The translations under genes were made by a program, and so were the position numbers. Of a DNA stretch of 64,000 bases, positions 15,441 through 18,749 are shown in pieces. Where the stretch lies: the NCBI RefSeq assembly GCF_024223415.1, contig NZ_CP100500.1. The stretch is one strand, 5' to 3'. The notes under the pieces were generated by a model. It was not told the DNA's origin and searched no databases. It was given only the letters and a program-made list of their open reading frames with translations. This DNA comes from Escherichia coli (lineage in GTDB: Bacteria; Pseudomonadota; Gammaproteobacteria; Enterobacterales; Enterobacteriaceae). Within the stretch, counting starts at the first letter, position 1; the number at the start of each line of letters is the position of its first letter.

Positions 15441-17102
15441 ATGATTAACCGTATCCGCGTAGTCACGCTGTTGGTAATGGTGCTGGGGGTATTCGCACTG
15501 TTACAGCTTATTTCCGGCAGTCTGTTTTTTTCTTCCCTTCACCATAGCCAGAAGAGCTTTGTGGTTTCCAATCAATTACGGGAACAGCAGGGCGAGCTGA
15601 CGTCAACCTGGGATTTAATGCTGCAAACGCGCATTAACCTGAGTCGTTCAGCGGTACGGATGATGATGGATTCCTCCAATCAACAAAGTAACGCCAAAGT
15701 TGAATTGCTCGATAGCGCCAGGAAAACATTGGCGCAGGCAGCGACGCATTATAAAAAATTCAAAAGCATGGCACCGTTACCTGAAATGGTCGCTACCAGT
15801 CGTAATATTGATGAAAAATATAAAAACTATTACACAGCGTTAACTGAACTGATTGATTATCTAGATTATGGCAATACTGGAGCTTATTTCGCTCAGCCAA
15901 CCCAGGGAATGCAAAATGCAATGGGCGAAGCGTTTGCTCAGTACGCCCTCAGCAGTGAAAAACTGTATCGCGATATCGTCACTGACAACGCAGATGATTA
16001 CCGATTTGCCCAGTGGCAACTGGCGGTTATCGCGCTGGTGGTGGTATTGATTCTGCTGGTGGCGTGGTACGGCATTCGCCGTATGTTGCTTACACCGCTG
16101 GCAAAAATTATTGCGCATATTCGCGAAATCGCCGGTGGTAACCTGGCGAATACCCTGACCATTGACGGGCGCAGTGAAATGGGCGACCTGGCGCAGAGCG
16201 TTTCACATATGCAACGCTCTTTGACTGACACCGTCACTCATGTGCGCGAAGGTTCAGATGCCATCTATGCCGGTACCCGTGAAATTGCGGCGGGCAACAC
16301 CGATCTTTCCTCCCGTACTGAACAGCAGGCATCCGCGCTGGAAGAAACTGCCGCCAGCATGGAGCAGCTCACCGCGACAGTGAAGCAAAACGCCGATAAC
16401 GCCCGCCAGGCCTCGCAACTGGCGCAAAGTGCCTCCGACACCGCCCAGCACGGCGGCAAAGTGGTGGATGGCGTAGTGAAAACGATGCATGAGATCGCCG
16501 ATAGTTCGAAGAAAATTGCCGACATTATCAGCGTTATCGACGGTATTGCCTTCCAGACTAATATCCTCGCGCTGAATGCCGCGGTTGAAGCCGCGCGTGC
16601 GGGTGAACAGGGCCGTGGTTTTGCCGTGGTGGCGGGTGAAGTGCGTAATCTTGCCAGTCGCAGCGCCCAGGCGGCAAAAGAGATCAAAGCCCTCATTGAA
16701 GACTCCGTCGCACGCGTTGATACCGGTTCGGTGCTGGTCGAAAGCGCCGGGGAAACAATGAACAATATCGTCAATGCTGTCACTCGCGTGACTGACATTA
16801 TGGGCGAGATTGCATCGGCATCGGATGAACAGAGCCGTGGCATCGATCAAGTCGCATTGGCGGTTTCGGAAATGGATCGCGTCACGCAACAGAACGCATC
16901 GCTGGTGCAGGAATCAGCTGCCGCCGCAGCTGCGCTGGAAGAACAGGCGAGTCGTTTAACGCAAGCGGTTTCCGCGTTTCGTCTGGCAGCCAGCCCACTC
17001 ACCAATAAACCGCAAACACCATCCCGTCCTGCCAGTGAGCAACCACCGGCACAGCCACGACTGCGAATTGCTGAACAAGATCCAAACTGGGAAACATTTT
17101 GA
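15441..17102 (+). CDS. tar: Methyl-accepting chemotaxis protein II (aspartate/maltose)
   Basis: [22 protein letters not shown]..., 553 aa, ends with NWETF pentapeptide. Confidence 0.95.
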
Positions 17103-17147
17103 CGAGTATTTACTAACGCGGTCATTGCCGCCTGATGGGGAGCGTTG

Positions 17148-18749
17148 ATGTTTAATCGTATTCGAATTTCGACCACGCTGTTTTTAATTTTGATTCTCTG
17201 CGGGATCTTGCAGATTGGCAGTAACGGCATGTCTTTTTGGGCATTTCGCGACGATTTGCAACGACTGAATCAGGTCGAGCAGAGCAATCAGCAACGTGCG
17301 GCATTAGCGCAAACTCGGGCGGTAATGTTACAGGCCAGTACCGCGCTGAACAAAGCGGGCACTCTGACGGCACTTAGCTATCCGGCGGATGACATTAAAA
17401 CGTTGATGACGACGGCGCGCGCCAGTCTGACGCAATCCACCACGCTGTTTAAAAGTTTTATGGCGATGACTGCGGGCAACGAGCACGTCAGGGCATTGCA
17501 AAAAGAGACGGAGAAAAGTTTTGCCCGCTGGCACAACGATCTCGAACATCAGGCGACCTGGCTTGAAAGTAATCAACTTTCGGATTTCCTCACTGCGCCG
17601 GTGCAGGGATCACAGAATGCGTTTGACGTTAACTTTGAGGCCTGGCAGCTGGAGATCAACCATGTGCTGGAAGCCGCCAGTGCGCAAAGCCAGCGTAACT
17701 ATCAGATTTCGGCACTGGTGTTTATCAGCATGATTATTGTTGCGGCGATCTACATCAGCAGTGCGCTGTGGTGGACGCGCAAGATGATTGTTCAACCACT
17801 GGCCATTATCGGTAGCCATTTTGACAGCATTGCTGCGGGTAATCTGGCGCGTCCGATTGCGGTGTATGGTCGCAATGAGATCACCGCCATTTTTGCCAGC
17901 CTGAAGACCATGCAGCAGGCTTTGCGTGGGACGGTGAGTGATGTGCGTAAGGGAAGCCAGGAGATGCACATTGGTATCGCGGAGATTGTCGCAGGCAATA
18001 ACGATCTCTCAAGTCGTACCGAACAGCAGGCGGCATCGCTGGCACAAACGGCCGCCAGTATGGAGCAATTAACCGCCACGGTAGGGCAAAACGCCGATAA
18101 CGCACGACAGGCGTCGGAACTGGCAAAAAATGCCGCGACAACGGCGCAGGCGGGCGGTGTTCAGGTCAGTACCATGACTCACACCATGCAGGAGATCGCC
18201 ACCAGCTCGCAAAAAATTGGCGACATTATCAGCGTTATCGACGGAATTGCTTTCCAGACCAATATTCTGGCCCTGAATGCGGCAGTGGAAGCGGCTCGCG
18301 CCGGAGAGCAGGGGCGTGGTTTTGCGGTAGTGGCAGGTGAAGTGCGCAATCTTGCCAGCCGTAGCGCGCAGGCAGCAAAAGAGATCAAAGGGCTGATCGA
18401 AGAGTCAGTCAATCGTGTCCAGCAGGGTTCGAAACTGGTGAATAACGCCGCCGCGACCATGATCGATATTGTCAGTTCGGTGACCCGCGTGAACGACATT
18501 ATGGGAGAAATTGCCTCTGCGTCGGAAGAACAACAGCGGGGGATTGAGCAGGTTGCACAGGCTGTCAGCCAGATGGATCAGGTGACTCAGCAGAACGCCT
18601 CGCTGGTAGAAGAAGCGGCGGTGGCAACGGAACAACTGGCGAATCAGGCCGACCATCTTTCGTCGCGTGTGGCGGTATTTACCCTTGAAGAACATGAAGT
18701 AGCACGACATGAGTCGGTGCAGTTACAAATTGCGCCAGTGGTATCCTGA
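17148..18749 (+). CDS. tap: Methyl-accepting chemotaxis protein IV (dipeptide)
   Basis: MFNRIRISTTLFLILILCG..., 533 aa, lacks NWETF tail. Confidence 0.95.
   Translation: MFNRIRISTTLFLILILCGILQIGSNGMSFWAFRDDLQRLNQVEQSNQQRAALAQTRAVMLQASTALNKAGTLTALSYPADDIKTLMTTARASLTQSTTLFKSFMAMTAGNEHVRALQKETEKSFARWHNDLEHQATWLESNQLSDFLTAPVQGSQNAFDVNFEAWQLEINHVLEAASAQSQRNYQISALVFISMIIVAAIYISSALWWTRKMIVQPLAIIGSHFDSIAAGNLARPIAVYGRNEITAIFASLKTMQQALRGTVSDVRKGSQEMHIGIAEIVAGNNDLSSRTEQQAASLAQTAASMEQLTATVGQNADNARQASELAKNAATTAQAGGVQVSTMTHTMQEIATSSQKIGDIISVIDGIAFQTNILALNAAVEAARAGEQGRGFAVVAGEVRNLASRSAQAAKEIKGLIEESVNRVQQGSKLVNNAAATMIDIVSSVTRVNDIMGEIASASEEQQRGIEQVAQAVSQMDQVTQQNASLVEEAAVATEQLANQADHLSSRVAVFTLEEHEVARHESVQLQIAPVVS

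Follow-up and report, generated by a model that had tools for sequence, protein, structure and literature searches.

The window analysed here, a 64,000-nt stretch of Escherichia coli contig NZ_CP100500.1, carries intact copies of two adjacent chemoreceptor genes, tar and tap (Table 1). A preliminary description of the sequence had named both genes, and these calls are borne out by 99.6–99.8% DNA identity over 3309 nt to annotated tar|tap loci in a search of E. coli genomes, by cheW/cheR synteny, and by the occurrence of TarH, HAMP, and MCPsignal domains in both proteins; no observation speaks against them. The closest match to the tar–tap pair is strain ECONIH4 (99.8%). At the matching locus the genes are annotated as methyl-accepting chemotaxis protein II (tar) and methyl-accepting chemotaxis protein IV (tap), with motB, cheA, and cheW on one side and cheR, cheB, cheY, and cheZ on the other. 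Pfam profiles place TarH at residues 1–169 of Tar, HAMP at 212–262, and MCPsignal at 325–482. E-values for Tar and Tap, respectively, are 2.9e-41 and 2.2e-42 for TarH, 1.6e-11 and 1.7e-09 for HAMP, and 1.5e-62 and 5.7e-56 for MCPsignal, the last profile being matched over its full length. Gene order, lengths, domain architecture, and C-termini equal those of the tar-tap-cheRBYZ ('meche') operon of E. coli K-12 (tar, b1886; tap, b1885); K-12-derived records share 99.6% nucleotide identity with the window, and allelic SNPs are the sole difference. The ligands of Tar (aspartate and maltose) and of Tap (dipeptides) are assigned by orthology, as is their methylation by CheR, and these properties would be expected to hold here.

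The translations end in DPNWETF for Tar and in IAPVVS for Tap. An NWETF tail on Tar and none on Tap, as the preliminary description had it, is thus confirmed, in agreement with the published distribution of this pentapeptide, on Tar and Tsr and not on Tap or Trg (PMC7390727, PMC4692393).

Table 1. Features of the tar–tap region, in coordinates of the window
Feature	Position	Strand	Description	Basis
Terminator-like hairpin and T-run	15322..15348	+	after cheW	sequence scan
Candidate sigma-28 (FliA)-type promoter-like motif	15383..15409	+	TAAAGTTT-N11-GCCGATAA, 5' of tar	read from sequence
tar	15441..17102	+	aspartate/maltose chemoreceptor MCP-II (ligands by orthology), 553 aa plus stop	ORF and translation, annotated match, Pfam
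tar copy of homologous cytoplasmic-domain segment	16272..16950	+	679 nt, 72% ungapped identity to tap copy	ungapped comparison; blastn
Second-longest exact tar/tap run	16385..16402	+	18 nt; tap partner 18086-18103	fusion type 2 crossover site
Best-conserved core, hairpin-tip region	16506..16700	+	tap partner 18207-18401	84-86% nt identity
Longest exact tar/tap run	16520..16543	+	24 nt; tap partner 18221-18244	fusion type 1 crossover site
NWETF pentapeptide codons	17085..17099	+	Tar CheR/CheB docking tail	translation; role per PMC4692393, PMC7390727
tap	17148..18749	+	dipeptide chemoreceptor MCP-IV (ligand by orthology), 533 aa plus stop	ORF and translation, RefSeq matching locus, Pfam
tap copy of homologous cytoplasmic-domain segment	17973..18651	+		repeat search, ungapped diagonal, blastn

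A scan for sigma-70 promoters returned matches no more numerous than in shuffled controls. The sigma-28-type motif upstream of tar (15383..15409) is a candidate only, read as matching the consensus of class 3 flagellar promoters.

The window holds the canonical E. coli tar–tap pair, and is of little importance in itself. The signalling domain shared by tar and tap has been known since both genes were first sequenced, and the NWETF difference and the potential for recombination are likewise already known. The degree of the similarity, its cause, and its consequences in natural populations are considered below.

The two copies of the homologous segment lie in direct orientation and in a shared reading frame, on a single diagonal at +1701 nt, or 567 codons. 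Other tar/tap diagonals reach at most 37% identity, and the match at +1701 therefore stands far above chance. At this spacing the repeat search recovered 16482–16781 with 18183–18482 (77%) and 16272–16456 with 17973–18157 (74%), and blastn of tar against tap returned one alignment, 16281–16906 versus 17982–18607, with 634 columns, 74.4% identity, and an E-value of 1.7e-112. Ungapped DNA identity peaks at 86% over 174 nt; the third-longest exact run measures 16 nt (16674–16689). The alignment first suggested for checking the repeat, 16470–16700 against 18190–18420, proved to be 19 nt out of register, with 24% ungapped identity; the in-register partner of 16470–16700 is 18171–18401, at 80%.

These values bear on the earlier characterization of the signalling segments as near-identical. 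At the protein level the wording is apt: Tar and Tap share 58 consecutive identical residues, and 95% amino acid identity over Tar 359–421. It does not hold for the DNA, which is 72% identical over 679 nt and 84–86% identical in the core, with no exact run beyond 24 nt. Similarly, a 29-mer said to occur in both genes is exact in tar (16515), but differs in tap (18216) by a single GCC-to-GGC mismatch that exchanges Ala for Gly. The DNA repeat is homeologous (about 72–86%), and the reading as near-identical is corrected to that degree. The sensing halves of the two proteins are almost fully diverged, with 25% amino acid identity.

The persistence of this similarity could have two causes, constraint on the protein or exchange between the genes. 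The copies are adjacent, direct, and in register, and tar–tap exchange does happen, as the natural fusions described below attest; these points speak for ongoing gene conversion, in the sense of concerted evolution between neighbors rather than selection on the protein. A somewhat lower dS in MH1 for tar–tap than for tar–tsr (0.97 versus 1.58) also points this way, but this comparison covers 46 codons only. The synonymous sites, however, are strongly diverged, with a tar–tap dS of about 1.1–1.5 and third-position identity of 47–56%, and the exact runs reach just 24 nt. Moreover, across the whole conserved domain (Tar 278–510) the unlinked tsr is nearer to tar (77.3% nucleotide identity, dS 1.49) than the adjacent tap is (70.8%, dS 1.50), and in the tip core (16515–16703) tar–tap dS (1.09, with dN 0.021) matches tar–tsr dS (1.08). 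In four other alleles no paralogue-directed tracts were seen: paralogue-type substitutions are not clustered, and roughly one SNP site in three carries the base of the paralogue, as expected by chance. Taken together, the high dS, the tsr comparison, and the lack of SNP clusters in the four alleles largely refute recent gene conversion as the cause, and we consider ongoing conversion very unlikely to maintain the similarity. Given this high dS, and a tar–tap similarity that does not exceed that of tar and tsr, protein-level constraint is the better account. On this account the signalling and adaptation domain is held near-constant as a protein because it must fit the common CheA/CheW/CheR/CheB machinery and mixed receptor arrays, and such constraint, rather than recent DNA exchange, keeps some 680 nt of DNA 72–86% identical in these old tandem paralogues of the tar-tap-cheRBYZ operon. 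The modest point to be drawn is that the repeat is homeologous, and owes its similarity to protein constraint and not to gene conversion. The genes of the other four-helix-bundle MCPs of E. coli, tsr and trg, have this conserved signalling domain in common with tar (82% nucleotide identity in the tip core for tar–tsr, 76% for tar–trg). Unlike the tar/tap pair they are unlinked, and no simple deletion fusion can therefore arise from their similarity. NWETF is retained by Tsr and missing from Trg.

The earlier proposal that the repeat can mediate deletion between tar and tap finds direct support in natural isolates. Of the 5,426 complete genomes searched with a split tar/tap probe, only 3 (0.06%) joined its halves, with exactly 1701 bp missing in each—an in-register deletion with its junction within the repeat. 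Each of the three genomes has, between cheW and cheR, a single 1608-nt ORF encoding a 535-aa Tar–Tap hybrid. When the examined fusion loci are considered together, the junctions of all eight (8/8) fall inside the 24-nt or the 18-nt exact run: type 1 crossovers lie between 16519 and 16544 (L005, L006, L010–L013), and type 2 crossovers between 16384 and 16403 (L007/L014 and L009). If crossovers were uniform over the homology, the probability that two events would both hit the top two intervals is about 0.004. The two types clearly differ in background: over 6288 nt, L005 and L007 show 78 differences, whereas L005 and L006 are identical; L007 and L009 differ by 26. At least two independent fusion events have occurred. 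Fusion-bearing wild isolates come from frog, pig, and other sources, and the hybrid proteins were found on 71 and 28 contigs of public assemblies, draft ones included. Exact protein look-up returned no hybrids joined at shorter runs (11, 11, 9, and 8 nt), a search that one allelic difference defeats. The same look-up gave no match for two simulated reciprocal Tap–Tar hybrid proteins, and requires the exact allele, hence a weak negative.

Repeats can collapse in assemblies, and many of the contigs encoding a hybrid protein come from drafts. It might therefore be asked whether the fusions are artifacts of this kind rather than real deletions, the repeat not being recombinogenic in nature. We regard this as extremely improbable. 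The exact tracts of 24 and 18 nt are below usual assembler k-mers, and identity in their flanks is no more than about 80%. Three fusions belong to chromosomes from the collection of complete genomes, and the records of two of these bear the title 'complete genome'. Identical junctions also recur in numerous independent assemblies, in 140 and 58 index blocks, and in every case an intact ORF results, with the reading frame preserved. Laboratory tar–tap fusions, moreover, are said to have been known for a long time, since the work of Slocum in 1987.

The likely course of events can be outlined from these data. Rare unequal exchange between the direct repeats takes out the spacer together with the 3' portion of tar before it and the 5' portion of tap behind it, and leaves one in-frame hybrid receptor gene, with the sensing domain of Tar and the signalling tail of Tap, without NWETF. 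This explanation as a whole—old tandem paralogues, a protein-constrained repeat, and rare unequal exchange giving an in-frame hybrid gene—is, in our judgment, very probably correct. The hybrids would presumably sense aspartate and maltose, and may depend for adaptation on NWETF-bearing neighbors such as Tsr.

The enzymology is a separate matter. For RecA to mediate exchange efficiently in E. coli, the minimum of perfect identity that is usually given is no shorter than the 24 and 18 nt available here. One option is RecA-dependent homeologous recombination, which would start from a tract close to the minimal processing length. The alternative, which concerns the mechanism only, does without RecA: replication slippage or template switching would act on the short perfect repeats, and the surrounding homeology would be irrelevant. 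The shortness of the junction tracts (18–24 nt) is in keeping with slippage, as is the use of still shorter imperfect repeats by other natural deletions in tar and tap (the tap-internal deletion and that in tar of strain 472). But both junctions are in register within the homeologous block and lie at its two longest runs, as homology-guided exchange likewise predicts. The data agree with either mechanism; slippage alone seems to us the less likely route, though a serious contender. Selection for an in-frame, functional hybrid could also bias which junctions survive. By either route, the junctions constitute a small natural data set, in which 18–24 nt of perfect identity within about 80% homeology was enough for a 1.7-kb deletion.

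Hybrid Tar–Tap transducers were reportedly obtained in the laboratory by Slocum, Halden and Parkinson in 1987. Tar–Tap hybrids are cited as functional chimeras in PMC2229510, by way of Slocum 1987 and Weerasuriya 1998. As in the natural alleles, the laboratory hybrids (Slocum, 1987; Weerasuriya et al., 1998) reportedly join the N-terminus of Tar to the C-terminus of Tap through the homologous cytoplasmic region. They differ in having been isolated or built in K-12, whereas the natural ones occur in wild isolates; the window itself retains both genes intact. It is conceivable, although on balance we doubt it, that the tar–tap repeat is an active natural hotspot, and that the hybrids, with two or more origins at the two longest perfect-identity tracts and persistence in circulating, mainly animal-associated lineages, could be selected. 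If this were true, selection may keep hybrids that drop Tap-mediated taxis and make of Tar a receptor without NWETF. A modest practical consequence is that annotation pipelines label the fusion alleles as plain tar, and comparisons of chemoreceptor content between strains can therefore miscount.

Deletions of other kinds also affect these genes. About 1,100 of the 5,426 complete genomes are without full tar–tap coverage, and all of those sampled (7/7, H33–H39) share one shortened place. As far as these genomes were examined, they were rejected as tar–tap fusions: in L001, the sole reduced-coverage locus mapped, a 1374/1375-bp deletion (17267..18655) lies wholly inside tap. This common deletion runs between short imperfect repeats at 17267–17281 and 18641–18655 and, unlike the natural tar–tap fusions, makes no use of the tar–tap homology. 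Loss of tap and trg in uropathogenic E. coli was reportedly described by Lane et al. in 2006, and the tap-internal deletion mapped in L001 is likewise a natural inactivation of tap. The shortened tar of strain 472 was also rejected as a fusion, since its 222-nt, in-frame deletion, between 16600–16618 and 16822–16840, is internal to tar.

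Tar and Tap are paralogous receptors that share a conserved cytoplasmic domain. Their genes are flanked by cheA/cheW upstream and by cheR, cheB, cheY and cheZ downstream, and the segment spanning both (15441-18749) was matched by megablast in 5,425 of 5,426 complete E. coli genomes, the top matches showing 99.6-99.8% identity across the full 3309 nt and being annotated 'tar: methyl-accepting chemotaxis protein II' and 'tap: methyl-accepting chemotaxis protein IV'. Both products score strongly for the TarH, HAMP and MCPsignal Pfam domains. As the preliminary description stated, the NWETF tail is present on Tar and absent from Tap, a distribution in which Tsr groups with Tar, and Trg with Tap (PMC7390727, PMC4692393).

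The homology between the two genes lies along a single diagonal, where they form one long direct repeat offset by exactly 1701 nt (567 codons). It is real and well above chance expectation: blastn gives a 634-column alignment of tar with tap (74.4% identity, E 1.7e-112). Along the ungapped +1701 diagonal, identity is 72% for 16272-16950, reaches 84-86% for 16506-16700, and drops to 52-60% near ~16430-16490. The preliminary description was thus right about the homology, the genes and their coordinates, but not in calling the DNA near-identical; near-identity is a property of the proteins, which share 58 identical residues in unbroken succession and 95% identity over Tar 359-421. The 29-mer it quoted for both genes is exact in tar (16515) but carries one mismatch in tap (18216; GCC to GGC, Ala to Gly). 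Its proposed alignment of 16470-16700 with 18190-18420 is 19 nt out of register, with 24% ungapped identity; the correct tap partner, 18171-18401, gives 80%.

Features of the tar-tap region (window positions)
Feature	Position	Strand	Detail
Terminator-like hairpin and T-run	15322-15348		directly 3' of cheW, upstream of tar
TAAAGTTT-N11-GCCGATAA promoter-like motif	15383-15409		32 nt 5' of tar start codon, downstream of hairpin
tar ORF	15441-17102	+	553 aa, C-terminus DPNWETF
tap ORF	17148-18749	+	533 aa, C-terminus IAPVVS
Repeat pair (repeat search)	16272-16456 / 17973-18157		74% identity
Repeat pair (repeat search)	16482-16781 / 18183-18482		77% identity
Longest exact tar/tap run	16520-16543		24 nt
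Second exact run	16385-16402		18 nt
Third exact run	16674-16689		16 nt
Tap-internal deletion ends	17267-17281 and 18641-18655		imperfect short direct repeat …CAACGACTGAATCAGGTCGA… / …CAACTGGCGAATCAGGCCGA…
Strain 472 tar deletion ends	16600-16618 and 16822-16840		similar motifs encoding GEQGRGF / DEQSRGI

Natural fusions were sought with a 600-nt split probe (tar 15971-16270 plus tap/cheR 18660-18959), the halves of which merge into one place only if at least ~1.6 kb is missing between them. The halves were joined in only three of 5,426 genomes: ET474 (frog, China), PEC389 (pig, Korea) and ETEC4088 (pig, Belgium). The probe spans 1288 nt in each, so exactly 1701 nt is missing, and a single 1608-nt ORF, labelled 'tar', lies between cheW and cheR; its product has normal TarH, HAMP and MCPsignal domains and the Tap tail APVVS. 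That the repeat can give rise to deletion, as had been proposed, is borne out by these three in-frame fusions. At the 798 sites that differ between tar and tap, the change from tar-type to tap-type falls between 16519 and 16544 in ET474 and PEC389, and between 16384 and 16403 in ETEC4088, that is, within the 24-nt and 18-nt identity runs, respectively. ET474 and PEC389 are identical across 6288 nt and therefore represent one event; ETEC4088 shows 78 differences from this pair and so represents a second. Were crossovers uniform across the homology, two events would both fall in the two longest intervals with P ~0.004.

Among public assemblies more broadly, the proteins encoded by these two fusion types are found on 71 and 28 contigs, and a third hybrid allele, with its junction in the 18-nt run and made of the window's own alleles, on one. 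The protein of the first fusion type (24-nt run) is unchanged for any crossover within ~16519-16690, so that contig counts alone leave its junction unfixed; five DNA loci checked do fix it, and every junction among hybrid loci L009-L014 lies in one or other of the two runs. Simulated hybrids at 8-11-nt runs, and two reciprocal Tap-Tar hybrids, had no exact protein match in the collection, both weak negatives. The natural hybrids (L005, L006, L007, L009-L014) are 535 aa long, and RefSeq and GenBank give their genes the usual 'tar / methyl-accepting chemotaxis protein II' label. Annotation-based chemoreceptor surveys would count tar as present in such strains and tap as just missing. In one fusion-bearing draft (GCA_907172595.1; L012 4627-5486), cheR is split into two called ORFs, 210 and 89 aa long, which suggests a frameshift in the gene or a sequencing error.

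It is unlikely that the fusions reflect assembly collapse rather than real deletion: the exact tracts, at 24 and 18 nt, are shorter than usual assembler k-mers, the same junction recurs in many independent assemblies, and the fusion ORF is intact in every case. The two genes carry direct, in-frame homeologous repeats, and the junctions of the natural tar-tap deletions lie in the longest perfect tracts of these. Deletion may proceed by RecA-mediated homeologous recombination, starting where the stretch of perfect identity nears the minimal efficient length, or by template switching between short repeats without RecA; the present data do not separate the two.

The reason for the DNA similarity was examined by codon-aligning tar and tap with K-12 tsr and trg and estimating Nei-Gojobori distances. 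For the cytoplasmic domain where it is conserved (Tar 278-510), the tar-tap values are 70.8% nucleotide identity, dS 1.50 and dN 0.202, against 77.3%, 1.49 and 0.096 for the unlinked pair tar-tsr; in the tip core (16515-16703) they are 84.1%, 1.09 and 0.021 against 82.0%, 1.08 and 0.052. Over the sensing half (Tar 1-277), protein identity between Tar and Tap is only 25%, with saturation at synonymous sites. Together, these distances and the diverged sensing half indicate that adjacency has had no homogenising effect on tar and tap. With dS at these levels, and no clusters of paralogue-type substitutions found in the four other alleles inspected, gene conversion is both unneeded and unsupported as a source of the similarity, which follows instead from purifying selection that has acted very strongly on the signalling domain (tar-tap dN/dS ~0.02 at the tip) since an old duplication.

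The preliminary observation is therefore partly confirmed and its interpretation supported, all of the latter being already established. Tar-Tap hybrids reportedly originated with Slocum, Halden and Parkinson in 1987, and are said to have been made anew by Weerasuriya et al. in 1998. In PMC2229510, these hybrids (Slocum 1987; Weerasuriya 1998) are cited as functional chimeras, and Delta(tar-tap)5201 is a standard laboratory deletion allele (PMC4692393). The sole addition is the existence of natural in-frame fusion alleles, annotated as plain tar, whose crossovers fall in the two longest runs of identity. Going by the literature, the hybrids would sense in the manner of Tar and have a Tap-type cytoplasmic domain that lacks the NWETF docking site for CheR/CheB, and adaptation would then be expected to depend on NWETF-bearing neighbours (PMC4692393, PMC7390727).

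Other deletions also affect the pair. Roughly 1,100 of the 5,426 complete genomes lack full tar-tap coverage, and the seven sampled (H33-H39) all have one common shortened place; at the one locus mapped (L001), a 1374/1375-bp deletion within tap leaves a frameshifted remnant. The documented loss of tap from uropathogenic strains (Lane et al. 2006, cited in PMC3559539) probably explains this partial coverage. One genome, strain 472, carries an in-frame 222-nt (74-codon) deletion within tar that removes the hairpin-tip region; the annotation calls the product just 'Tar ligand binding domain-containing protein'. Both deletions, of which the tap-internal one is common, used short imperfect repeats.

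Upstream of tar, the promoter-like motif is a good fit to the sigma-28 (FliA) flagellar class 3 consensus, and is a candidate promoter. The mechanical cheA ORF (12754-14772) has a TTG start 20 codons 5' of the annotated start; the difference between 654 aa as annotated and 672 aa as listed reflects the ORF listing rule only.
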